From the sequence record KM389300.1: a stretch of 25,803 nt of DNA. One strand, given 5' to 3'. Below, in pieces: positions 1,803 through 25,716 of the stretch; position 1 is the first letter of the stretch, and each line of letters starts with the position of its first letter. This stretch comes from Escherichia phage CBA6. The position numbers and the translations under genes were made by a program. The notes under the pieces were generated by a model. That model was not told the DNA's origin and ran no database searches. It was given only the letters and a program-made list of their open reading frames with translations.

Positions 1803-3074
1803 ATGAACGATACACAAATAAAATGTGAAGAGACTTCATCTGGTGTCAACGATTTCGTAAACCACTGGATTGATTTAGTCAACCAAAAAACGATATTCAA
1901 CACTCTTTCACTCAGTCGTGACCAGGTTCACTGGGAAGACTATCTTTACAAACACACCCCGTGCGAACTCGTTGCCAACCCCGAAACCAATCAGCAGGTC
2001 TGGTTCAAGCGTGAAGACTACTTCGCGCCGCTGTCCAATTATGCAAATGGCCAGCAGGGCATTAATGGGAGCAAACTCCGTCAGGCCATCTGGCTCATGA
2101 TGGAGCATCTTAAAGCGGGAGGATCCCCAGATCTTATCCATGGTACTGTCGTTGGTAGTCCGCAGTCCCCTATGGCGACGGCAGTCTCACGGCATTTCGG
2201 CGGCAAGACAACCACTGTGCTGGGTGCCACTAAACCAACCACATGCATGAACCATGATATGGTTTCAATGTCAGCATGGTTTGGTAGTGAATTTAACTTT
2301 GTTGGATCTGGTTACAATAGCACCATTCAGCCGCGCTGTAAGAAACTCATTGAACAATTAAATCCAAAGGCGTATTATCTGGAATATGGCATTACATTGG
2401 ATCATACCGTTCATTCACCAGAACGCATTGCTGGATTCCATATGCTGGGTGGTGAGCAGGTTGCCAATATCCCAGACCATATCACTGATCTGATCATTCC
2501 TGCTGGTTCTTGTAATTCATGCACCAGTATCCTGACAGGTTTGGCGATGCATCCGAAACCAAATCTGAAGAATGTCTATCTGATCGGGATTGGACCTAAC
2601 CGATTAGATTTCATTGAAAGTCGTTTGCGCATTATCGGTAAGCAAGCAAACCTCCCTCACATAACTGATTTCACTCGTCGCTATCACGACAACCCAGACT
2701 ATGTGTATGGTAAGAAGGATCTTCAGCATGCCTCTAAGAGCGTTTCGTTGGCTGGCCTCCTAAGTGGTATCAGGCCAAAGAACGAGCCGGATATCGTGCT
2801 TCCTCGCTTTGAGGTACACCATTGGGATCTTCATACCACTAATTGGGTTCGTTACAACGACCTCATGGATTACCAGTGGGGGGATATTGAGTTGCATCCT
2901 CGTTATGAAGGTAAGGTCATGACATGGATACAGGAACACAAACCAGAATTGCTTAATGAGAACTCATTGTTTTGGATCGTGGGGAGCAAGCCATATCTGG
3001 AAGCGATGAAAGCTGCTTGTCCTGAATTATCAATCCCCGAACATGTCCCTGTGAATGAGTTTGTCCCCAGCTAA
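1803..3074 (+). CDS. PLP-dependent enzyme, ACC deaminase / D-cysteine desulfhydrase fold (tryptophan synthase beta-like, fold type II)
   Basis: Family motifs in order: FKREDYFAP...NGSKLRQ (KRDD...GGNKLRKLE block with candidate PLP lysine), VVGSPQSPMATAVSRHFG (GxxQSNHxR phosphate loop), IIPAGSCNSCTSILTGLA, HPRYEGKVM (DPVYTGKAM block), IVGSKP (HTGG block); 423 aa with a C-terminal extension. Confidence 0.75.
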   Translation: MNDTQIKCEETSSGVNDFVNHWIDLVNQKTIFNTLSLSRDQVHWEDYLYKHTPCELVANPETNQQVWFKREDYFAPLSNYANGQQGINGSKLRQAIWLMMEHLKAGGSPDLIHGTVVGSPQSPMATAVSRHFGGKTTTVLGATKPTTCMNHDMVSMSAWFGSEFNFVGSGYNSTIQPRCKKLIEQLNPKAYYLEYGITLDHTVHSPERIAGFHMLGGEQVANIPDHITDLIIPAGSCNSCTSILTGLAMHPKPNLKNVYLIGIGPNRLDFIESRLRIIGKQANLPHITDFTRRYHDNPDYVYGKKDLQHASKSVSLAGLLSGIRPKNEPDIVLPRFEVHHWDLHTTNWVRYNDLMDYQWGDIELHPRYEGKVMTWIQEHKPELLNENSLFWIVGSKPYLEAMKAACPELSIPEHVPVNEFVPS

Positions 3075-6578: not shown

Positions 6579-9575
6579 ATGACTGTTTTCTATACGAACG
6601 TTGCCCGACAGGGTAACGACCTTCTGATTCGTATCGCAGACGACAACGGCAATCGCCGCATGTTGCGTAAGAAATTCGAACCCACCTTGTATTTACCCAC
6701 AGCTGATTATTCCAAAGTTGAAAAGATTGGCCTCCTCAATGAACCGTTGGTGTCTAAAAAGTTTGCATCAATGCGAGACGCTGACAACTATCTTGAGGAG
6801 TACAAGGAGGTCGAAGGGGCTGCGGTGTATGGACAAACGGATTATGCATATCAATTCATCGCCCATAGTTTTCCTGGGATGATCACACCTGATTATTCAA
6901 ATATCCACATCGCCAACGTGGATATCGAAGTGTTCTCGGCTGGTTGGCGTGACGGAGAAATGACTAAAGGTCCATTCCCACACGCAACGATTGAATCTCA
7001 CACGTTTAAAGGCAGCGAGGCGCGGGTTCGTCGTTTCCATAAGCAAGTACTGGCCAACCATGATTTCGTTCGGGAGCATTTCCCTGGTTCCTTTATTTCC
7101 AATAACGTGACTGACCAATTCCCTATAATTGACAGTAACGGTAAAATCACACAGAACATGAATGCGGCGTTCCCTATTACGCTGATACAGCTCCAAGATA
7201 TGAATACCAATAAATTCTATGTCTGGGGCATGCCGTGTTCCAAGGATCGCCATAAATTCAAATATGACCCCAATGATGAAGAAGTCGGCGGTCTTGAGGT
7301 TGAATATAAAGAATATACGACGGAACAAGATCTGCTTCGCGCCTTCTTAGATTACTGGTCGGAACGTCAATTTGACGGTTGGACGGGGTGGAACATTGAA
7401 ACGTTCGATAGCCCCTATTTGGTTGAACGAATTATGCAGGTTCTTGGTGAATCTGAAGCCCAGCGCCTCAGTCCTTGGGGTAAACTCAAGAAACGTTTCA
7501 TCAAAGACCGTAAAGGCGACGTGACTTCTTATCAATTCGTGGGTTGTCCTATGATGGACTACATGCAAGTTTACAAGAAACACACTTACACCACCCGCGA
7601 AAAATACTCACTGGACTGGATCGCTTATTGTGAACTCGGTGAGAAGAAGTTGGATTATAGTGAAAGCAAATCATTGTATGACCTTTATTTCAATGATTAT
7701 TGCAAGCATACGCGATATGGTATCAAAGACGTCAAGCTGGTGTGGCGCTTAGAACAAAAACTGCGTTTGATACAGCTGATGTTTGTATTGGCTTATCGCA
7801 CTAAATCCAACTATGAAGACGGTCTCGGCACTGTAGCACCGTGGCTGGCAATGTGCTATTATCGTCTTTATGAGAAGGGGATTGTCCCGAAAATCCAGCG
7901 CGTCTATGATGGGCCAACAGATTTTGAAGGCGCATATGTCATGGAGGTTGCCCCAGGGATATATTTCTGGGTCTTCTCTGAGGACTTAAACTCCCTGTAT
8001 CCCCACATCATACAGCAATACAACCTTGGTCCAGAGACTATCGTTTCTGATAAGCACACACGCCGTGATATTATTGAGGCCATGTGTGAGGAATTGACCA
8101 AAGCGATGAATGATATGACAACGCCGATGAATAAACGTCGTCATCTCAAAAATCTTCACGACAAGTTGCAGCGTGCTATTGATGAACGCATACAAGTTGT
8201 TGATGAATTGGTCGCGCTGGGCGAATTCCATTTTGAAACACTACGCCGATATAACGTTTCGTTTACCCCGAACGTTCAGTTCTTCAGTAATGAGAAGATG
8301 TCCTTCCTTTCCGAAATTATGCGAGGCATATACGCTGACCGTAAAGGAGAGAAAGCAACTGGCCTGAAGTATGAGCAATGGGCTGGTTGGTGTAAGGAAA
8401 TGTCTAAAGGTGATTTCCACCTTGAATCCGCCATGAAGTCTCGTTTCTACGATCCTGAATGGTATGAAGAACACAAGCACATCGATCTTGATCACCTGAC
8501 TGAAGTCATGCACAAGTGGGAAGATCTGGGGGTTGCTCAAGATACGTTACAACAAGGTCTGAAGATCTTGATGAACGCAGGTTATGGCGCAATCTCCAAC
8601 GTCTGGTTTAAAGAATACTTCAACATCAACATCGCTGAAGCAATCACCACTTCCGGCCAGCTGATCAACAAATGGAACAAACGCCACACCGATGATTATC
8701 TGAACAAACTTTGCGGCACTACTGGTCAGGATTTTGTTATCGCGGGTGATACTGACTCCAACTACATTTGCATTGAACGTCTGGTCAAGCAATTGTGGCC
8801 TGAAGAAAAGGATCATCACAAACTCGTTGATAACATTGACCAATGGATCAAAGAGAATTACCAGCCAAAAACCAGTGAATGGGCGCAGTTGTTGTGTAAT
8901 ACCATGAACGGGTTTGAGCAGCGCATGGTCTGGGAACGTGAGGTCATCGCATCGTCTGCTGTATGGCGAGCCAAGAAGATGTATTGCATGGCAGTATACG
9001 ATAGCGAAGGCATCAAGTATGAGAAGCCAAAGATCAAATTCAAAGGTCTGGAAGCGCGTAAATCTACAACGCCGGAATGGTGTCGTGAGCGTCTGGTTAA
9101 ATGCTATGAGAAAGTTCTGCTGGGGACGGAGGCTGAAGTTCAGGAATTGATCGCGGGTTATAAGAAGGAATATATGGAATTAACCGTGGATGATATTGCT
9201 CAAGCCTCTGGCGTTAGTGATATTGAGAAGTGGTTAGACGGCAACGGAAATTATATCAGTGGCACACACTTTGCTGCCAAGGCTTGTATTATGTACAACA
9301 AGCTGATAGACAAGCATGAAGACCTCGGTCTCCCGCCGATAGAATCTGGCGATAAGGTTAAAATCATTAACCTGAAACCTGGGAACCCTGTGGGGAACGA
9401 CCGCATAGCCTTCCCTGACTTCCTCCCTCCGGAGTTGGGGCTGGATAAGTGGGTAGATTACCACACCACGTTTGAAAAGACCTTCATAGAGCCGATTCAG
9501 TCTATTCTAGACGTGGTTGGTTGGTCTCACAAACGTCGAGTTAATCTGTTGTCCATGATGGGCAAGAAAGGTTGA
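6579..9575 (+). CDS. DNA polymerase, family B (T4 gp43-like), 999 aa
   Basis: N-terminus MTVFYTNVARQGN... resembles T4 gp43 MKEFYISIETVGN...; exo I motif VDIEVF; motif A DLNSLYPHII; motif C IAGDTDSNYI; start at 6579 chosen for SD GGAG (6568..6571) rather than the SD-less ORF start at 6477. Confidence 0.93.
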   Translation: MTVFYTNVARQGNDLLIRIADDNGNRRMLRKKFEPTLYLPTADYSKVEKIGLLNEPLVSKKFASMRDADNYLEEYKEVEGAAVYGQTDYAYQFIAHSFPGMITPDYSNIHIANVDIEVFSAGWRDGEMTKGPFPHATIESHTFKGSEARVRRFHKQVLANHDFVREHFPGSFISNNVTDQFPIIDSNGKITQNMNAAFPITLIQLQDMNTNKFYVWGMPCSKDRHKFKYDPNDEEVGGLEVEYKEYTTEQDLLRAFLDYWSERQFDGWTGWNIETFDSPYLVERIMQVLGESEAQRLSPWGKLKKRFIKDRKGDVTSYQFVGCPMMDYMQVYKKHTYTTREKYSLDWIAYCELGEKKLDYSESKSLYDLYFNDYCKHTRYGIKDVKLVWRLEQKLRLIQLMFVLAYRTKSNYEDGLGTVAPWLAMCYYRLYEKGIVPKIQRVYDGPTDFEGAYVMEVAPGIYFWVFSEDLNSLYPHIIQQYNLGPETIVSDKHTRRDIIEAMCEELTKAMNDMTTPMNKRRHLKNLHDKLQRAIDERIQVVDELVALGEFHFETLRRYNVSFTPNVQFFSNEKMSFLSEIMRGIYADRKGEKATGLKYEQWAGWCKEMSKGDFHLESAMKSRFYDPEWYEEHKHIDLDHLTEVMHKWEDLGVAQDTLQQGLKILMNAGYGAISNVWFKEYFNINIAEAITTSGQLINKWNKRHTDDYLNKLCGTTGQDFVIAGDTDSNYICIERLVKQLWPEEKDHHKLVDNIDQWIKENYQPKTSEWAQLLCNTMNGFEQRMVWEREVIASSAVWRAKKMYCMAVYDSEGIKYEKPKIKFKGLEARKSTTPEWCRERLVKCYEKVLLGTEAEVQELIAGYKKEYMELTVDDIAQASGVSDIEKWLDGNGNYISGTHFAAKACIMYNKLIDKHEDLGLPPIESGDKVKIINLKPGNPVGNDRIAFPDFLPPELGLDKWVDYHTTFEKTFIEPIQSILDVVGWSHKRRVNLLSMMGKKG

Positions 9576-9635: not shown

Positions 9636-9980
9636 ATGAAACTCAATAAGATTCTTCTGGTGTGTGCTCTGGCTTTCTCTACCACTGCATGCTCTACCCT
9701 TCTGGACGTTGCGTCTACTGTTGACCTCGATGCGCCGACGTTCACCAATCAGCAAGCGGTGAATAAGATGGAAGACACCATCAAGGCACATGCAGCTTTG
9801 GACAACACCACTCCTGGTCCGTTGCAAACTGTTTGCAATTATGATGATTCCATCCAGGAAGATGAAACCTATCACTGCACCACTTACGTGAAGGAATCTT
9901 CTGTGGTTCTGTATGCCGATTGCACCGAAGAGCAATGCACCGCAACGGGTTATGACAATGTGGAGAAATCTGATGAATAA
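9636..9980 (+). CDS. putative lipoprotein (114 aa)
   Basis: ATG at 9636; N-terminus MKLNKILLVCALAFSTTAC resembles a signal peptide with a lipobox-like Cys; acidic, Cys-containing mature part; the ORF track start at 9618 is TTG. Confidence 0.5.
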   Translation: MKLNKILLVCALAFSTTACSTLLDVASTVDLDAPTFTNQQAVNKMEDTIKAHAALDNTTPGPLQTVCNYDDSIQEDETYHCTTYVKESSVVLYADCTEEQCTATGYDNVEKSDE

Positions 9981-10755
9981 TCACGTTGGTCTGTATGACG
10001 CATGTTCTAAAATTGGCGGGTTATATCGCGTTCTGGTGGATGTGGATTTGACTCTGGTTGATTCCCTATCGCCGTGGGTTGAATGGTTCAATATTTCTAA
10101 TTCTAAAGCCGCTGCGGAAAATATGGGATGTCACGACTACCCATCTGAATTTCAACCAATCACCAAAGAGTGTTATATGTCACACGCTGGTGATCTGGCG
10201 ATCCTCATGCGTGAACGCGCGCATCCGGCCTGGTTAACGCGCCGTGTATTCGTTGCTGGTCAGTGGATGGATTCGCCAACAGGACGTGATCCGATGGATT
10301 GGTGGCGTATGCCTGATCTGTATTCCAGAATGTCACCACTGCCAGGGGCTGTTGAATTCCTTACGAATTTAAAGGCCGCTCTCCTTCAGAAGTTTGAGCA
10401 AGTGGAAATGGTGGCTGTTACAAAATGCGAACCGGAACACGAACGCAGCAAGCGTCAGTTCATATACCATCACTTTGAATCGTTGATTAATGGGTTCGTG
10501 AGCACGGATGAAAAGCATCTGCTTGCTGGCGATGTCCTGATCGACGACAATCCGAAGTATGTTGAGCCGTGTGCCCTGAATAACATCTTCGTCATCTTCG
10601 TCCCTCAGGGCAATTATGAAAAACTGGATCTTTCGAATTGCGAGGATATGCTTTATATTAAGCATGTAGAAGGCCAAAACCACTTTGACTTCTTGAATCG
10701 TAACCTCGATGAAGTGGTGAATCGCCTGGTTTCTCATTATCAATATGTCCGATAG
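9973..10755 (+). CDS. HAD-superfamily phosphatase, 5'(3')-deoxyribonucleotidase-like (260 aa)
   Basis: Start ATG 9973 with SD GGAG (9962..9965), overlapping the upstream stop; HAD motif I VLVDVDLTLVD (DxDxT) and motif IV GDVLIDDNP. Confidence 0.65.
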   Translation: MNNHVGLYDACSKIGGLYRVLVDVDLTLVDSLSPWVEWFNISNSKAAAENMGCHDYPSEFQPITKECYMSHAGDLAILMRERAHPAWLTRRVFVAGQWMDSPTGRDPMDWWRMPDLYSRMSPLPGAVEFLTNLKAALLQKFEQVEMVAVTKCEPEHERSKRQFIYHHFESLINGFVSTDEKHLLAGDVLIDDNPKYVEPCALNNIFVIFVPQGNYEKLDLSNCEDMLYIKHVEGQNHFDFLNRNLDEVVNRLVSHYQYVR

Positions 10756-10764
10756 GAGCACATC

Positions 10765-11070
10765 GTGCAAGAACAAAATAAAGTTGTAGAAAGCCCTGAC
10801 AAGCGTTCCGGTGACAGTGATATGGATGGTATCATTATCCATGTAAACAACTTCATCCGTAATCAGAATCCACCAACTTCCGTTGGCGCAGCGTTGGAAT
10901 TAAAACGAGTTCTGATTGAAAACGGTATGGCACCTGATGACGACGAAATTTTCTATAACTTTGATGACCAGTATAAAGTGAAGTTTGTTGAGAATGGTCA
11001 TCCGCAAGTTGCCGTGTTTTGGGCACCTTGGTTGGGTGGAGTGAGTTGGCGCATTGAGGATGCTGCATAA
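10765..11070 (+). CDS. hypothetical protein (101 aa)
   Basis: GTG start at 10765 with SD TAGGAG (10753..10758); stop overlaps the kinase start (TAATG at 11068..11072). Confidence 0.5.
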   Translation: MQEQNKVVESPDKRSGDSDMDGIIIHVNNFIRNQNPPTSVGAALELKRVLIENGMAPDDDEIFYNFDDQYKVKFVENGHPQVAVFWAPWLGGVSWRIEDAA

Positions 11071-11984
11071 TGGCAAAGATCATCGTAATCAAAGGAACCA
11101 GCGGCACGGGTAAAGGCACTCGTGTCGTACAGTTCATCGAGTGGCTCCGCACTAAGCTGAAGCCGACTGAATTGTCGTACACTGTTGGGGATAAGACGCG
11201 CTCCTTCGGCCTGAAATTTGAAGAGCTGAAGTTAATCTTCGTCGGCCAATACACAGTGTCCAATAAATCCGGCCTGGCGTCTTGGACCTCTATGGACGCC
11301 ATTCATGCTGCCACAGGCTCTGGGGATATTGCTCGCGACCTCGTCAAGGGTTGGCTGGCTCAGGGATATACCCTGGTGTGTGAGGGCGAACCTCTGATGC
11401 TGTCGGACAAGTGGCGTCCTGAATGGATGTTCAATAACTATCCGATTGATTCTTTGGCGCTGCTGTACTTTGCATATCCAGACCGCTATCAGTACGATGC
11501 CCGCATCCGTGGACGCTCTGGTAAAGAAGCGGGGGATTCCGGCTGGTCGCGCAACGAATCTTACTCCAAGGAGTTCGAGAAGTCCAAGGCTGAAATGCTG
11601 GCGCTTGGCTGGAATGTTGCCGTGGATGATTACAGTGGGCAAGACGTTTTGTACCACCAAACGGCTACGAACACCCAAGAATTCAAGACTGGGAATGATA
11701 GCGAATTGGCTATGTTGCCGTTCGACGCCCCGTTGTGGGTGGTGGGTAATGCTATCTATCATCAGCTTGGCACAGTTTGCCGCGCTAACAATCTGATGTC
11801 GAAAGACTTCTACGGCTATTGCGAAACCAATCCGATGACGCGTGAAGTCGGCGGTCAGGATCCTTTGGCTCACAGAGTGCCTGAGAAGCCGCAGAAGGCA
11901 TCCAAAACTAAAAACAAGGCCGTCGCCAAGGAAGAACCAAAGACCTCATCCGTGTCCCTTCTGGGGCTAATGCGTAAGGTGTAG
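11070..11984 (+). CDS. P-loop kinase, NMP-kinase-like Walker A; candidate nucleic-acid (5-hydroxymethyl-pyrimidine DNA) kinase
   Basis: N-terminal Walker A GTSGTGKGT (the GxxGxGKGT form typical of adenylate/NMP kinases) at residues 9-17; 304 aa; C-terminal tail KTSSVSLLGLMRKV matches the polymerase tail. Confidence 0.7.
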   Translation: MAKIIVIKGTSGTGKGTRVVQFIEWLRTKLKPTELSYTVGDKTRSFGLKFEELKLIFVGQYTVSNKSGLASWTSMDAIHAATGSGDIARDLVKGWLAQGYTLVCEGEPLMLSDKWRPEWMFNNYPIDSLALLYFAYPDRYQYDARIRGRSGKEAGDSGWSRNESYSKEFEKSKAEMLALGWNVAVDDYSGQDVLYHQTATNTQEFKTGNDSELAMLPFDAPLWVVGNAIYHQLGTVCRANNLMSKDFYGYCETNPMTREVGGQDPLAHRVPEKPQKASKTKNKAVAKEEPKTSSVSLLGLMRKV

Positions 11985-11987
11985 ATA

Positions 11988-12191
11988 ATGAAAAAGATGT
12001 CTAAATATTTTGTGTTCGTCGGTCTGGTGATGTGCTTTTCAGCTATGCTTGTCGGTGTTATGAAATATTTGGGCATCGTTGAATTAGACTCAACCGAAAT
12101 ATTGAATGTTTACGCGTTATATTATTCGGGCGGTGTCGCTTTATTAACGCCGTTCGTTTACAACATAATTGAAAGTTTCAAAAGGAATTAA
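11988..12191 (+). CDS. small hydrophobic protein (67 aa), probably two TM helices
   Basis: ATG at 11988 with SD AAGGTG (11975..11980); hydrophobic segments FVFVGLVMCFSAMLVGV and GGVALLTPFVYNII. Confidence 0.45.
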   Translation: MKKMSKYFVFVGLVMCFSAMLVGVMKYLGIVELDSTEILNVYALYYSGGVALLTPFVYNIIESFKRN

Positions 12192-12192
12192 A

Positions 12193-12543
12193 ATGAAAAT
12201 TCTTATTCCACGCAATGCCATTGCTATTGCTGTTGACTATCGTGGCGATGCCAATATGATTAACGCTGTCCGATATTATCCGGAACAGAATAAAATCATT
12301 CCCCAATTCCAGCTGAACACCAATCCATCTTCTAAAGATTTCGGTGCATGGCGGCAAATTGGGTTGGCACGGACTCAGGTTAATGCCCAGCATTATATTT
12401 CTGAAAAAACGAAAACCGCCAAGCAAATCTGGGTAGTATCCAATGACCGTCGGTTCCTTCCAATTTGGTCTTTGGGCCAGCCCGTTTTAAACCCTGAAGA
12501 TATCCAACTCGAAGCCGAGGTGAAGGATGACGCATCTATCTAA
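12193..12543 (+). CDS. hypothetical protein (116 aa)
   Basis: ATG at 12193 with SD AGGA (12183..12186); the ORF track start at 12169 is TTG. Confidence 0.5.
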   Translation: MKILIPRNAIAIAVDYRGDANMINAVRYYPEQNKIIPQFQLNTNPSSKDFGAWRQIGLARTQVNAQHYISEKTKTAKQIWVVSNDRRFLPIWSLGQPVLNPEDIQLEAEVKDDASI

Positions 12544-13762
12544 AATGCCGACAGGTTATACGCCTCCGGCTGAATGGAAGTACCCAATTGATTTGTCAAT
12601 CGATTATCGTAAGCCAGAGAATCGGATGTATCTGCTCAAAGCATGGGTGGAGGCGCTGTCGTATACGGAAGAACACAACCAACAAGTTCGTCTGATGGAT
12701 TATGCGATTGAAGTCACTGAAGGCATTACGCAGCTTGAGAAGATCGAGCGCAAGATCTGGATGGCGTTCCTTTGGGGCTGTTGTTATAATGGGATTGGCC
12801 CATGGACGATTTATAGTGAGTTTCCTGTACCGCCTCAGTCACCACAAGAGTTCAAGCGATTCTGTGATTGGTATAACCTGAACTTCGAGCGTATGCGATT
12901 CGATACTGATTGCCGCTATCGCAAATCGAAGATGATCCCGTGTGTTCAGTCCTACATTGATTGGCTGGCTGGTCGTACTCAGATGGATGCTTTCCGTCCG
13001 TTGTTGGAGACTAAACTGCAAAGTGATCAATTCGTTAAGCTATGGGACACGGCTATGGGGTGGAAATACTTCGGTCGCCTGAGCGCCTGGAACTTCCTGG
13101 AAGCCCTGAACATGGTATTCGGCAACATGTATCAGATCGACGTCCCTGGGTTCATGTTGCGTGACCGTGATGGTAGTGAGTCCAACCGCAACGGCGCGGC
13201 ATTCTTGTCAAACCGTGACGACTGGGTGACCAAGCACGGAAAGAAAAAGATCAACGGCTGTCCTATCACCGATGAAGAATGCGACATCCTTGAGGCTGAT
13301 CTTGAACAGGCATTCAAAGATTGTGTCGCCGAGTTTGGTCACATCACGTTCATCAATCGTTTGAACTTTGAGACTTCCGGCGCTTGTTGGCTTAAGAAAT
13401 TCTTCCGTCTGAAAAACACTCGTTACATCGGGTGGGATGCCGAGCGTACTTGGGATGAGATCGACTACATGGAACGCATCTGGCCTGAGTACTCCTGTAA
13501 GGCATTATGGGAAGCCCGTTCCCTCTGGCTACCAGATACCCTGTTATGCGAAAAAGCTCCTGCAGGGCACGTTCCTGGCGTCCAGAAGTGGAAGATGCCT
13601 GTGTTCTTTGAGACGGGTGTTCCTCTACATATATGGCACCTGCAGCAGGGTACGCGTTGGGAACCATCTGAGGTTTACACTAATCTGAAAATGCCCGTCC
13701 GGAAGATAGATGACAATCCGAAGTCGACCAGTGTAAACCTCATGTCTTTGTTGAAACGATGA
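12527..13762 (+). CDS. hypothetical Trp-rich enzyme (411 aa); candidate DNA base-modifying transferase carrying the polymerase-like C-terminal tail
   Basis: ATG at 12527 with SD GAGGTG (alternative in-frame ATG at 12545); no motif I can name; C-terminal tail KSTSVNLMSLLKR matches the polymerase and kinase tails; two genes downstream of the kinase. Confidence 0.6.
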   Translation: MTHLSKMPTGYTPPAEWKYPIDLSIDYRKPENRMYLLKAWVEALSYTEEHNQQVRLMDYAIEVTEGITQLEKIERKIWMAFLWGCCYNGIGPWTIYSEFPVPPQSPQEFKRFCDWYNLNFERMRFDTDCRYRKSKMIPCVQSYIDWLAGRTQMDAFRPLLETKLQSDQFVKLWDTAMGWKYFGRLSAWNFLEALNMVFGNMYQIDVPGFMLRDRDGSESNRNGAAFLSNRDDWVTKHGKKKINGCPITDEECDILEADLEQAFKDCVAEFGHITFINRLNFETSGACWLKKFFRLKNTRYIGWDAERTWDEIDYMERIWPEYSCKALWEARSLWLPDTLLCEKAPAGHVPGVQKWKMPVFFETGVPLHIWHLQQGTRWEPSEVYTNLKMPVRKIDDNPKSTSVNLMSLLKR

Positions 13763-13770
13763 TATAAATA
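13763..13770 (+). promoter_or_regulatory. T4 late-type promoter box TATAAATA
   Basis: Exact TATAAATA at 13763..13770, about 30 nt upstream of the ATG at 13801; the only exact copy I found in the window. Confidence 0.5.
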
Positions 13771-13800
13771 TCCTTGCTTATAAAAGTGAGGATATAAATC

Positions 13801-18512: not shown

Positions 18513-21254
18513 ATGAAAATGCGCAAGTCTGAGCATTTCGTGCGCTCTTCTTCCACTATCGTCGGACAGACATTTAATGTCAAGATGACGGATAAATTAT
18601 TTGAAACATTATTTTCAAGTCTCTACAAATATAAAGAGGCCGCATCTTTGCGTGAGACGTTATGTAACGGTATAGACTCGCATAATATGCGTGATCGCCA
18701 ACAGCGTTGGTTGCCGTCCCATTATGCCCCTCTTACCCCTATGCCCCAAAGATACAGCAAGCATCTTGCTCCCAAAGGGACGCCCGTTGTGGTCCATTTA
18801 CCTGATGTTATGGAACCATGGTTGGAAATCAAGGATTATGGGATTGGCCTTCCGTTAGAAATGATTATCGGGGAACCTATCGCAGCGCGGGAAGATGAAG
18901 TGCTTGTCGAAGGCAACATTGTTGTGAAGGAAGATGAAATCCCTGACAGCACTGCTGTTATTGGGACGCCTGGTTATTACAATGGGGTGTTGGTATTCCG
19001 CGCTGAGGATGGCGAGATCATCCGCGGACCTGGTTTGTACACCACACTCTTCCACAGCACCAAAGAGGACGACGACGGGCAGATCGGCGCGTTCGGGCTG
19101 GGTTCTAAATCCCCATTTGCAGTGTCGGACTCATTTACTGTAGAAAGTCGTTATGAAGGTAAACTGTATCGCTTCCTTATGTATCTGAATGCGGACAGGA
19201 TTCCTACTGTGGACCTGATCACCAAGGATTTGGATACCCGTGATCCGAAACCAGAAGACACTGATGAGTTCAATGGTCTGACTGTTAAAGTGCCTGTAAA
19301 GAATCAGCGATTTACCGCATTTGAACAAGAACTGGTCCGTCTGGGTCGAGTTATGCGCCCATCAATGCGCCCGAAGGTTGAAAATGCCAGTTATTCTTTC
19401 CGCTGGCAGGACATCAATTTTGAAAACCGTGTGGGCAACACGTATATTCAGCCGAAGTCTGATTCTGATAATACCCACTATGCCGTTATGGGCGGGGTTT
19501 CTTATCCGATAGATCTTGAGCAATTGGATTCTGAAATACGTTCGGTGCTGGAGAAATTCCCGAGTTCCTATACATTCTTTGAACTTGGAGAATTGAATGT
19601 TCCTCCATCACGTGAAGACTTGTCATATGACGAGTTCACCCGTGAAAGCCTGAACCGAGTGTTCAAATATGTGGCTGACAATATTATGCAGGCGAAGATG
19701 TATGAACTTCGCCAGGCCGAATCTATGGGTCCTCTTATGCTTTATATGAAGAAGGCTCAATTGACCGATATGTTCGGTAGTGGTTTCCGTAAATTAGTGG
19801 AGCGAGAATTTCCTGCAGATAACCGTTTCTACAAAGGCACGTTCCGTTATATCGGAGCGCCGGACGTCGTGCGCGATTACTCTGTGGATGCACCTTTCCG
19901 GTCTATTGGTAGTCCTTACGAAATTGAAGTACACGACGACGGTGTAGTACACGACAGCATTTATGTGAACTCTGTCGGAAATTGGTTGAAATCTAAATCA
20001 AAAATTGCTGTTATTATTGATAACTCGAATCGTGCTCGAAACCTGAAGATACAAACAGCACGCAATAACTTCAATGTCGTTATCGTCGTCAAGCCGAATG
20101 AAAATTATTTCAGTAATCGGAATCAGCTGGCGGCACATAAAGAATCATTCACCAACCATGAGGAATTGAAGTCTTATTTTGAATCATGGATCGGTGTACA
20201 AGAAACAACACCGGACTACCTGGTCTTTGCCGATAAACTGATCGAGGTTTTTGGCGATTTATTCAATCCGGATGAAGTTTATTTCATGCATGAAATGGAA
20301 TATGTTCGCCCGACCGTTGAAAAAGATCCTGGGATGTTTAGTTTCCATTACAATTCATTTAACTTCGACAGCGTTTATGAATTGGATGGAAAAACCGTTT
20401 CAGATATTATTGATTCAGGCAAAAAGATCGTATATATCGAAGTATCTGGCCGAGAAGGTATCCATAAAATTCATGGTAATACCTTACGGCAATCCACGGC
20501 TGGACATTTGCGTGAAGCGATGGAAAGAACGAAGTTCGGCGAGAATGGAAACGAAAACATGTTTGATTTGCTGGGAGCGCATCCAACAATCGTTCTTGCG
20601 CGTCGTAAATCTGTTCCGATGATGAAGAAATTCCCAGAAGTATTCATCCCCATTGACGCAGTGTTTGATATGTTGCTTGAGCATTATAAAGATGAATTTC
20701 AGGCGCTTGAATCTAAGAAACTCCTGAAACTTCGCAAGGGCATAAACATCATGTCTCATCGCATTGATTATGGTGCCAAGCTGTTGATTGATTCCCATGG
20801 AGAAGTTACGGATGGCTATGCTCATCATCAACACAGGGCAAAAGCAATCATCGGTTATGCGAAACAACAAATCACTGAAGAAGAATGGAAGGTTGTTCGT
20901 ATGCTGGCCAAACGAAACCCGTCTGGATCGGGGTATGGTTATTTCCGCAAGGCGGTTGAGGAATTACATTATCGTATAGAAATGCCTTTCTCAACTACGA
21001 GATTTTTCCGCGCCTGTAACCAGTTAACTCAAGTTGTTGATTTATTGAATGAAAAATTAACTGCTGAAGGATTTGATGAGATAAAGGTCACTAGCACTAT
21101 ATCTCAAAAGCAAAAGGCCAAAAACCGATACCGAGTTGAATGTCATCGTTTGGTGAAATTCATGATGTCAAAATATCAGCCAACGGCGCATAATGCGATT
21201 GAAGATGCCACTAGATTTGTGAAGGCTATTTCAAAACGTATTCTCGGGGCATAA
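18513..21254 (+). CDS. rIIA: rIIA protein (913 aa)
   Basis: Clear resemblance to T4 rIIA as I recall it: N-terminal ATPase-like block FNVKMTDKLFETLFSSLYKYKEAASLRETLCNGIDSHNM, GAFGLGSKSPFAVSDSFTV, GGVSYPIDLEQLD, LNVPPSREDLSYDEFTRESLNRV. Confidence 0.9.
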   Translation: MKMRKSEHFVRSSSTIVGQTFNVKMTDKLFETLFSSLYKYKEAASLRETLCNGIDSHNMRDRQQRWLPSHYAPLTPMPQRYSKHLAPKGTPVVVHLPDVMEPWLEIKDYGIGLPLEMIIGEPIAAREDEVLVEGNIVVKEDEIPDSTAVIGTPGYYNGVLVFRAEDGEIIRGPGLYTTLFHSTKEDDDGQIGAFGLGSKSPFAVSDSFTVESRYEGKLYRFLMYLNADRIPTVDLITKDLDTRDPKPEDTDEFNGLTVKVPVKNQRFTAFEQELVRLGRVMRPSMRPKVENASYSFRWQDINFENRVGNTYIQPKSDSDNTHYAVMGGVSYPIDLEQLDSEIRSVLEKFPSSYTFFELGELNVPPSREDLSYDEFTRESLNRVFKYVADNIMQAKMYELRQAESMGPLMLYMKKAQLTDMFGSGFRKLVEREFPADNRFYKGTFRYIGAPDVVRDYSVDAPFRSIGSPYEIEVHDDGVVHDSIYVNSVGNWLKSKSKIAVIIDNSNRARNLKIQTARNNFNVVIVVKPNENYFSNRNQLAAHKESFTNHEELKSYFESWIGVQETTPDYLVFADKLIEVFGDLFNPDEVYFMHEMEYVRPTVEKDPGMFSFHYNSFNFDSVYELDGKTVSDIIDSGKKIVYIEVSGREGIHKIHGNTLRQSTAGHLREAMERTKFGENGNENMFDLLGAHPTIVLARRKSVPMMKKFPEVFIPIDAVFDMLLEHYKDEFQALESKKLLKLRKGINIMSHRIDYGAKLLIDSHGEVTDGYAHHQHRAKAIIGYAKQQITEEEWKVVRMLAKRNPSGSGYGYFRKAVEELHYRIEMPFSTTRFFRACNQLTQVVDLLNEKLTAEGFDEIKVTSTISQKQKAKNRYRVECHRLVKFMMSKYQPTAHNAIEDATRFVKAISKRILGA

Positions 21255-25137: not shown

Positions 25138-25716
25138 ATGAAATCTTTAGTTAAACGAAAAGTAGAAGTATCCCTTAATGCGCATATTGAAATGCTACAA
25201 CAATTGGTTCTAGATGCGTATGAAATTCAAAAAGATCGCCGGATTCGTCACGACCTTGATCCCGCAGACAGTGGGAGCATGCTCTACTATCGAATGCTTC
25301 GCCAGACTGGTCACACTGCGGCGTTAAAGAAACTCCTTTCTGAAAAATTCCAAATTGAAAATGACATCGACGTATTCGGTGTATTTCACACTGCGGCGTT
25401 AAAGAAACTCCTTTCTGAAAAATTCCAAATTGAAAATGACATCGACGTATTCGGTGTATTTCACACTGCTCGTGAACGTGATACGTTTTTCACTCAATCG
25501 AAAAATGTAACCACAGGGGAGCAGTATGAAAAATTTGATCGAAAAGAGAAAACGTCGACCATGGCCAATTTTATGGGAACCAAAATCGACAAGGCCAATA
25601 TCATCGTGTTTTCAGATACTCTGCATGATGCTAAGCGCCTTTCCGCTGCCCATCAAATGTTAAAAGATAATCGCAGCTGCTTTACAAATTTGACTTTAGT
25701 AGTGTTTCTGGGCTAG
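25138..25716 (+). CDS. hypothetical protein (192 aa) containing a perfect 25-aa tandem duplication
   Basis: ATG at 25138 with SD GAGG (25124..25127); internal repeat HTAALKKLLSEKFQIENDIDVFGVF x2 encoded by identical 75-bp units. Confidence 0.6.
   Translation: MKSLVKRKVEVSLNAHIEMLQQLVLDAYEIQKDRRIRHDLDPADSGSMLYYRMLRQTGHTAALKKLLSEKFQIENDIDVFGVFHTAALKKLLSEKFQIENDIDVFGVFHTARERDTFFTQSKNVTTGEQYEKFDRKEKTSTMANFMGTKIDKANIIVFSDTLHDAKRLSAAHQMLKDNRSCFTNLTLVVFLG
25312..25461 (+). repeat. perfect 75-bp direct tandem duplication (2 copies), in frame within a CDS
   Basis: 25312..25386 and 25387..25461 are identical base for base; each copy begins CACACTGC, and the same 8-mer follows the second copy at 25462. 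Confidence 0.9.

Follow-up and report, generated by a model that had tools for sequence, protein, structure and literature searches.

Escherichia phage CBA6 (record KM389300.1; the 25,803-nt stretch analysed here is referred to as the window) carries, downstream of its family-B DNA polymerase gene, a kinase and a transferase gene that very probably belong, together with a more distant gene for an enzyme dependent on pyridoxal phosphate (PLP), to the part of the Kuttervirus (ViI-type) thymidine hypermodification pathway that follows replication. This module is already known, as all three near-identical proteins of Salmonella phage Vi01 (ViI), namely gp243, gp247 and gp226, were characterised in biochemical work (Lee et al. 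2018, 2021). The genes themselves add nothing new to what is a textbook pathway in a sister phage, and the value of the comparison lies in the C-terminal tails of the encoded proteins. The kinase, the transferase and a third, gp160-type helical protein end in a short peptide that resembles the C-terminus of the DNA polymerase and/or of the coactivator gp33 of the same phage, and this peptide changes in concert from one phage lineage to another. The reading preferred here, to which we assign a probability of roughly 0.6, is that the three proteins are clients of the phage gp45 sliding clamp, and that their interchangeable tail co-evolves with the tails of polymerase and gp33.

The modification enzymes and their counterparts in phage ViI

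A megablast search with nt 9900–13800 of the window (3901 bp) matched 276 phage records; in 172 cases the match covers 80% or more of the query length, and the best matches were to Kuttervirus phages (Ackermannviridae). Phage ViI shows 99.7% DNA identity across the full 3901 bp, and every open reading frame (ORF) of the matched stretch is an annotated coding sequence in that phage. At the protein level, identity to ViI is 100% for a HAD-superfamily phosphatase (Vi01_194), 99.0% for the kinase (Vi01_196), 100% for the 411-aa transferase (Vi01_199) and 93% for the PLP enzyme (Vi01_182). The accessions that Lee et al. (2021, NAR; PMC8989533) give in their Table 1 for the 5-hydroxymethyl-dU (5-hmdU) DNA kinase gp243 (YP_004327565), the serine:DNA transferase gp247 (YP_004327568) and the PLP-dependent decarboxylase gp226 (YP_004327553) are the same as those annotated on the matching ViI genes.

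According to the literature on phages with near-identical proteins, ViI-type DNA is replicated with 5-hmdU replacing dT; about 40% of T in ViI DNA is replaced by 5-(2-aminoethoxy)methyl-dU (5-NeOmdU), and many restriction enzymes are blocked. The kinase gp243 phosphorylates 5-hmdU in DNA (PMC8989533). Purified gp247 puts serine onto the phosphorylated base, 5-phosphomethyl-dU (5-PmdU), through the side-chain oxygen, and mutation of a conserved Cys or Glu abolishes its activity (PMC8989533, PMC5889632). Omission of gp226 leads to a carboxylated (+44 u) intermediate, and this protein, which was purified in PLP-bound form, was assigned as the decarboxylase (PMC8989533, PMC5889632). Mixed lysates, in which five proteins were used, reconstitute 5-NeOmdU (Lee et al. 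2018, PNAS; PMC5889632).

The kinase of CBA6 (nt 11070–11984, + strand; 304 aa) differs from gp243 at 3 of 304 residues and has the P-loop Walker A motif, GTSGTGKGT, at residues 9–17. Against the Pfam profile PF18747 ('5-hmdU DNA kinase 2', HMUD2) it scores 559.6 bits (cutoff 25; E = 1.9e-168), and the alignment runs end to end, from residues 1–303 of the protein to positions 1–298 of the 298 in the profile. Judged by its sequence it is a 5-hmdU DNA kinase, which would phosphorylate the hydroxymethyl group in replicated 5-hmdU DNA to give 5-PmdU. The ORF containing the kinase is 532–535 aa long in some Limestonevirus, Taipeivirus and Kuttervirus genomes (L023:7663-9261, L030:7816-9414, L038:7836-9443), and the kinase also forms the C-terminal 300 residues of a 497-aa PHROGs family labelled 'endonuclease'. 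This suggests either the insertion of a homing endonuclease in front of the kinase gene or a fusion.

The transferase (nt 12527–13762, + strand) had been described from the raw sequence as a Trp-rich protein of 411 aa, and indeed contains 20 Trp residues (4.9%). It matches the Pfam family PF18724 (ADDT, 'amino acid:DNA transferase', formerly aGPT-Pplase2, that is aGPT-Pplase clade 2) at 197.6 bits (cutoff 26.2; E = 3e-58), and has an HhH (helix-hairpin-helix) DNA-glycosylase-like fold in common with a solved member of the family. Residues E282, T283 and C287 are all present; among 51 homologues E282 and T283 are invariant and C287 is at least 90% conserved, and the pattern corresponds to E243/T244/C247 of the glycinyltransferase PUGT (see below). 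When the transferase, the kinase and the HAD protein were compared by sequence with the PDB, no match was found. The transferase is predicted to use its active-site Cys and Glu to swap the phosphate of 5-PmdU for the side-chain oxygen of free serine, the hydroxyl of which would displace the phosphate, yielding O-serinyl-thymidine.

The PLP enzyme (nt 1803–3074, + strand), a candidate PLP-dependent enzyme of fold type II, matches the PALP profile weakly, at 31.5 bits against a cutoff of 35. Its Lys91, in the sequence GINGSK, is the counterpart of gp226 K92, which has been proposed as the Schiff-base lysine. As the homologue of gp226 it probably decarboxylates O-serinyl-thymidine to 5-NeOmdU. 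The original prediction, made from the sequence alone, had read this kinase, the 411-aa protein and the PLP enzyme as a thymidine-hypermodification pathway of the kind found in ViI-, M6-, SP10- and PhiW-14-type phages. That pathway was inferred correctly, as judged by the two Pfam matches and by the 93–100% identity to active ViI proteins, and the profile searches it had proposed for nt 11070–11984 and 12527–13762 recovered the 5-hmdU DNA kinase 2 and the aGPT-Pplase2-type (ADDT) families.

C-terminal tails in the window and in phage ViI

The family-B DNA polymerase (nt 6579–9575, + strand) is a gp43 homologue that matches the Pfam families DNA_pol_B_exo1 and DNA_pol_B and is 98.7% identical to Vi01_190. 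Polymerase, kinase and transferase end alike, in RRVNLLSMMGKKG (nt 9534–9572), SSVSLLGLMRKV (nt 11946–11981) and STSVNLMSLLKR (nt 13724–13759), respectively, all encoded on the + strand. These tails, termed type A here, are putative clamp-binding motifs, and no other gene of the window has one at its C-terminus. The tail of the transferase lies behind a disordered linker: in the AlphaFold2 (AF2) model residues 392–403 have pLDDT (predicted local distance difference test) values below 50, while residues 405–410 form a short helix. Both the length and the sequence of this linker vary among homologues. The DNA coding for the tails of the three genes is 45–47% identical pairwise, so the similarity exists at the protein level and is not that of a DNA repeat; a repeated DNA element was rejected as their source on these grounds.

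A motif scan of the whole ViI genome covered 1794 stop-to-stop ORFs. The narrow form of the motif was matched only by the polymerase, gp243, gp247, the 70-aa protein Vi01_049c and one antisense ORF. A broader pattern recovered gp160 (an aGPT-Pplase1/HMUDK_hel protein), which ends in GSVNLLDRLKKPE, and added one probable chance match in a tail-tube protein. No such tail was present on ViI gp67, on gp226, on the HAD protein or on any other replication protein that was checked.

Covariation of the tails across lineages

One genome-specific tail is common to kinase, transferase and gp160-type helical protein in at least five lineages. Its sequence changes in concert among lineages, being VNLLSLM, TKKLW, xSLW or T4-like SLxDFF, and it matches the C-terminus of the DNA polymerase and/or the gp33 homologue of the same phage (PF16805 confirmed that the proteins of ViI, K447 and phiA8-29 are gp33 homologues). 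In Vibrio phage K447 only 6 of 2358 ORFs end in [KR][KR]L[WF], and all six are annotated genes: those for the polymerase, the gp33 homologue, the kinase, the transferase, the gp160 homologue and a small protein of the family phrog_4789, each ending in [TSA][KR][KR]L[WF]. Aeromonas phage phiA8-29 and contigs L039/L040 have a tail of this kind (type B, TKKLW) on the three enzymes and on gp33. The ending xxLW occurs on five proteins of the metagenomic contig L072, namely the polymerase, two kinases, the transferase and the helical protein.

Other contigs carry peptides close to those of T4 and RB69. The C-terminal half of a split polymerase on contig L070 ends in SLEDFFS, the kinase in FFDIFH and the transferase in SLFDF, while on contigs L037, L071 and L076 the three enzymes have T4-like tails (SVLDLF, SLNDFFG, NVFDIFGA, SVFDI). 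A scan of viral contigs based on the polymerase did not recover the contig of L037. On each of the latter three contigs, genes for a gp44/62-type clamp loader also follow, at a distance of about 3 kb or less. An ORF of about 227 aa lies between; in L037 it matches the Pfam gp45 clamp family, and in L071 and L076 it is taken to be the clamp by its position.

The presence of a tail also follows the relatedness of the transferases. Among 59 homologues, 58 of which were sorted by tail class, all 45 with at least 45% identity to gp247 have a hydrophobic tail of one of these types, compared with 0 of 13 in a distant clade (about 41–43% identity). Two contigs of the distant clade were examined; they are 32–36 kb in size and siphovirus-like. 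Next to the terminase gene they encode ParB, a Tet_JBP protein, the kinase and the transferase, and the approximately 21 kb read showed neither polymerase nor clamp genes.

The strength of the covariation was assessed by permuting genomes and scoring the tails with BLOSUM62. For kinase versus transferase tails the observed score was 217, against 117.8 ± 20.7 in the permutations, and was reached in 2 of 40320. The helical protein versus the transferase gave 148 (permuted 94.3 ± 16.3; reached in 2 of 720), the polymerase versus the transferase 138 (90.8 ± 19.9; 16 of 720) and the polymerase versus the kinase 114 (82.0 ± 13.3; 11 of 720). Shared ancestry is ruled out as the source of the similarity because the compared proteins are not mutually homologous. 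Chance was rejected as the origin of the tails on the strength of the genome-wide censuses together with these tests.

Some further proteins with similar C-termini came to light. Vi01_049c (ViI nt 30355–30567) and VPHK447_0079 (K447 nt 56708–57007) are small, Cys-rich, zinc-ribbon-like proteins of phrog_4789, whose genes occur in the neighbourhood of the DNA ligase gene (adjacent to it in K447, a few genes away in ViI). Their tails are genome-specific, DKVNLLSLMRK in ViI and KPKTKKLW in K447, and this is a fourth protein family in which the tail switches. The ViI protein Vi01_144c (nt 97862–98284), a SLOG/YspA-like protein (PF10686), ends in KPKTKRLL, which is like the gp33-type tail.

The T4-like contig L070, with the split family-B polymerase, has a different arrangement of modification genes (L070:8616-11734), in which a Tet_JBP dioxygenase is followed by the transferase and then by a Ploopntkinase3-type kinase. 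The dioxygenase is without a tail, while transferase, kinase and polymerase have RB69/T4-like tails. The gene content suggests that 5-hmdU may be made here by oxidation of T in DNA.

The HAD-superfamily protein

The HAD-superfamily phosphatase gene (nt 9973–10755, + strand; homologue of Vi01_194/orf239) may start as early as nt 9913, and the ATG at nt 9973 agrees with the ViI annotation. Both motifs that had been pointed out in the original prediction are present: in the 260-aa form of the protein, DVDLT at residues 23–27 represents motif I (DxDxT), and GDVLIDDNP, at residue 186, represents the acidic motif IV. The protein matches the Pfam family PF06941 (NT5C, 5'(3')-deoxyribonucleotidase) at 33 bits (cutoff 24.8), the best stretch covering profile positions 56–143 of 180, and its homologues on contigs L037, L070, L071 and L076 match this family more fully. 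No match was found among NCBIfam models, which in fact held no model for any of the eight window proteins searched.

Most likely, and with moderate confidence, the HAD protein is an NT5C-type deoxyribonucleotidase whose substrates lie in the nucleotide pool rather than in DNA. It could, for instance, be a dTMPase, which would deplete dTMP and so keep dTTP out of replication. The suggestion is based on the NT5C match, on the position of such genes in the neighbourhood of the cluster across lineages, and on the precedent of the classical hmU phages, in which a dTMPase excludes dTTP as part of the pre-replicative 5-hmdU pathway (PMC8989533). The original prediction had counted the HAD protein as a member of the module. 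What stands of this is the NT5C match and the location next to the cluster; its action would at most be on the nucleotide pool, and the published reconstitution managed with five proteins of which it is not one (PMC5889632), which weighs against including it.

It is possible, if somewhat less probable in our view, that the protein lies outside the hypermodification logic altogether, as a general deoxyribonucleotidase for nucleotide salvage or recycling of host DNA that happens to be a neighbour of the polymerase gene. Its absence from the reconstitution would be explained, as would its lack of a tail, and the PHROGs family to which it belongs, phrog_420, is large and without an assigned function, the deoxyribonucleotidase match itself being weak. 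Chance proximity accords poorly with the finding that NT5C-type genes lie beside the polymerase or the kinase/transferase cluster in every replisome-encoding lineage examined (K447, phiA8-29, L037, L070, L071 and L076), while none was seen on the two small Tet_JBP/ParB contigs examined, and the dTMPases known from other phages also argue for a role in supplying 5-hmdU.

Docking to the sliding clamp

T4 gp43, gp33 and gp55 have very similar C-terminal peptides, which can be swapped freely for one another and sit on flexible linkers that vary; these peptides bind the hydrophobic patch of the gp45 clamp and possibly also its subunit interface, and T4 ligase uses an internal loop, LDFLF, in the same way (PMC2988020, PMC7892883, PMC6212786). 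This similarity is not kept in all phages of the T4 family (same sources). By analogy, in CBA6 and its relatives the short C-terminal peptide, on its flexible linker, would dock on the phage gp45-type clamp, and the kinase, the transferase and the gp160-type protein, which is encoded elsewhere in the genome, would thereby be recruited to freshly replicated phage DNA by the same device as the polymerase and gp33. A clamp left behind on new DNA would in this manner tie the modification of bases after replication to the replication fork. The gene for the clamp lies outside the window. The simplest reading of the tail sequences is that at least two classes of clamp motif exist, the polymerase-type VNLLxLM and the gp33-type TKKLW, in addition to T4-like variants, and that both classes bind the clamp. 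The kinase paralogue gp67, which is tail-less, may work with the tailed gp160, since the corresponding domains are fused in SP10 gp186 and on contig L075, and the Pfam name of the gp160 family is "5-hmdU DNA kinase, helical domain".

Several observations weigh against clamp docking. The type-B tails are basic, unlike the acidic/hydrophobic motif of T4. The likeness to the LDFLF and SLFDMFDF peptides is mixed: it is clear in L037, L070, L071, L076, P0011 and P0012, the SVNLMSLL of the window resembles them only loosely (S-h-[ND]-h-h), and TKKLW is dissimilar. In phiA8-29 and contigs L039/L040 the polymerase keeps a type-A tail (KKVNVLKFFK) beside the type-B tails of the enzymes and gp33, so the enzymes do not always copy the polymerase tail, and clamp binding has to be assumed for both motif classes. 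In K447 the polymerase (L007:9440-9664) has two candidate motifs in tandem, KKRVNLFALGG, which is the ancestral one, followed by a Lys-rich extension of about 25 aa ending in ARKLW. No clear match was found when gp55 homologues were checked for tails. Finally, the purified enzymes are active on naked DNA without a clamp (PMC8989533), and the tail is therefore not needed for the chemistry. For M6 gp54, phosphorylation of roughly 23% is reported on naked DNA.

Some of these points would be accommodated if the tails docked elsewhere, whether on another component of the replisome or nucleoid, directly on DNA in the case of type B, or as a tag for turnover, or if they were exchanged as modules without any common function. 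The strongly basic KTKKLW, the differing tail types of polymerase and enzymes in phiA8-29 and L039, and the gp55 homologues without a motif all speak for such a solution. We nevertheless regard it as the less likely reading, because gp45 is the only partner common to DNA polymerase and gp33 in the T4 paradigm, and because some lineages have peptides nearly identical to those of T4/RB69, with clamp-loader genes close by and, in L037, a gp45 gene supported by Pfam. In addition, a linker followed by a short helix is the layout typical of clamp-binding motifs, and the tail-less transferases were found on contigs in which the part read contains no phage clamp gene. Clamp docking thus remains the preferred explanation. 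The original prediction had remarked on a shared clamp-type tail as fitting action on DNA; the shared tails are real, their covariation across lineages lends the idea strong comparative support, and tethering to the clamp is what we infer from them.

A split polynucleotide 5'-kinase/3'-phosphatase (Pnkp) for the healing of DNA or RNA ends, which had been offered as an alternative identity for the kinase and the HAD protein, and for which one could cite the distance of only about 300 bp between the two genes and the frequent presence of Pnkp in T4-type phages, was rejected as exceedingly improbable, since the kinase is HMUD2 from end to end and 99% identical to an enzyme that phosphorylates 5-hmdU in DNA (gp243), the HAD protein matches NT5C, and neither protein matches PNK or HAD_PNKP.

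Other genes and features of the region

The genes downstream of the polymerase are closely packed and all lie in the same direction, on the + strand. The first encodes a small DUF7292 protein (nt 9636–9980) and is followed by the HAD gene. Between the latter and the kinase gene lies a gene for a 101-aa DUF7254 protein (nt 10765–11070; Vi01_195; phrog_3911; Pfam PF23912, E = 3e-47), of which no homologue was detected in K447 or phiA8-29. Kinase and transferase genes are separated by two small genes, both with products 100% identical to those of ViI: a 67-aa protein (nt 11988–12191; Vi01_197, phrog_4514), whose gene is missing from this position in phiA8-29 and K447, and a 116-aa protein (nt 12193–12543; Vi01_198, phrog_4163). 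Directly 3' of the transferase stop codon is TATAAATA (nt 13763–13770, + strand), the T4-type late promoter consensus. This is the sole match in the window, but a single match is not significant alone, as 51 of 100 shuffled sequences had at least one.

The gene directly upstream of the PLP gene encodes a 233-aa protein (nt 1032–1733; phrog_4050), which is 85% identical to Vi01_181, with indels, and has no homologue in the divergent genomes K447 or phiA8-29. Its C-terminus, TFMDNMMKFLRLFKK (SFFRRLMDFLTK in ViI), is hydrophobic and amphipathic and unrelated to the type-A motif; a role as a further docking peptide is possible. The genes of the window have diverged from ViI to unequal degrees, the transferase and HAD proteins being 100% identical, the PLP enzyme 93% and this 233-aa protein 85%, which indicates local mosaicism.

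The window spans the start of the Vi01 record, with rIIA (Vi01_001) beginning at nt 18513. Near its end, nt 25311–25469 form a perfect tandem duplication of 75 bp (2.1 copies, 100% match) inside the ORF at nt 25138–25716, the homologue of Vi01_008 ('histone family DNA-binding'). The duplication repeats 25 aa (TAALKKLLSEKFQIENDIDVFGVFH), and the ORF has 192 aa compared with 168 aa in ViI. Either the duplication is genuine and in frame, or it may have arisen as an artefact of assembly.

Implications and comparison with known systems

No earlier link between these enzymes and the clamp was found in the literature, and the idea appears to be unreported so far, with the reservation that coverage was incomplete and priority is not excluded. 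If clamp docking is true, the list of phage clamp clients gains base-modifying enzymes, and riding on the clamp would explain how enzymes that act on the polymer find fresh phage DNA quickly and so protect it against restriction. The density of modification would then depend on how clamps are loaded and might differ, for example, between leading and lagging strand or with the distance from nicks, and tethering could help to explain why the substitution of T is incomplete in ViI. A tail in common with the polymerase or gp33 of the same phage would also be a simple sequence signature by which to recognise other accessory proteins that act on DNA in the genomes of T4-like phages and Ackermannviridae.

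Compared with the 5-NeOmdU pathway of ViI, the CBA6 module is the same system in a sister isolate, with the same genes in the same order and 93–100% protein and 99.7% DNA identity. Nothing material differs between the enzymes of the two phages, the most diverged products being the gp226 homologue (93%) and that of the gene upstream of it (85%), but neither the C-terminal tails nor the HAD gene is mentioned in the published work on ViI. The transferases of Pseudomonas phage PaMx11 (gp46, PUGT, a 5-PmdU glycinyltransferase; PDB 8z2m) and phage M6 (gp51) use the amine of glycine, whereas the donor in the ViI type is the hydroxyl of serine, and the ViI-type protein is about 120 residues longer, with a linker and tail.

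The likeness to the clamp-binding motifs of T4/RB69 gp43, gp33 and gp55 lies in a hydrophobic peptide at the extreme C-terminus, a variable linker, and its common use by the polymerase and by non-replicative clients; some hypermodification lineages even have near-T4 sequences (SVLDLF, SLNDFFG, ELSLFDF). Unlike T4/RB69, the putative clients here are DNA base-modifying enzymes, and the ViI motif, S-V-N-L-[LM]-S-[LM]-[LM]-K, as well as TKKLW, differ from LDFLF. In eukaryotes, the PIP (PCNA-interacting peptide) box of DNMT1 couples maintenance methylation to the replication fork through PCNA. The resemblance to this system is one of analogy only, in that a DNA-modifying enzyme is tethered to a clamp by a short linear motif, while the proteins, the chemistry and the domain of life are unrelated.

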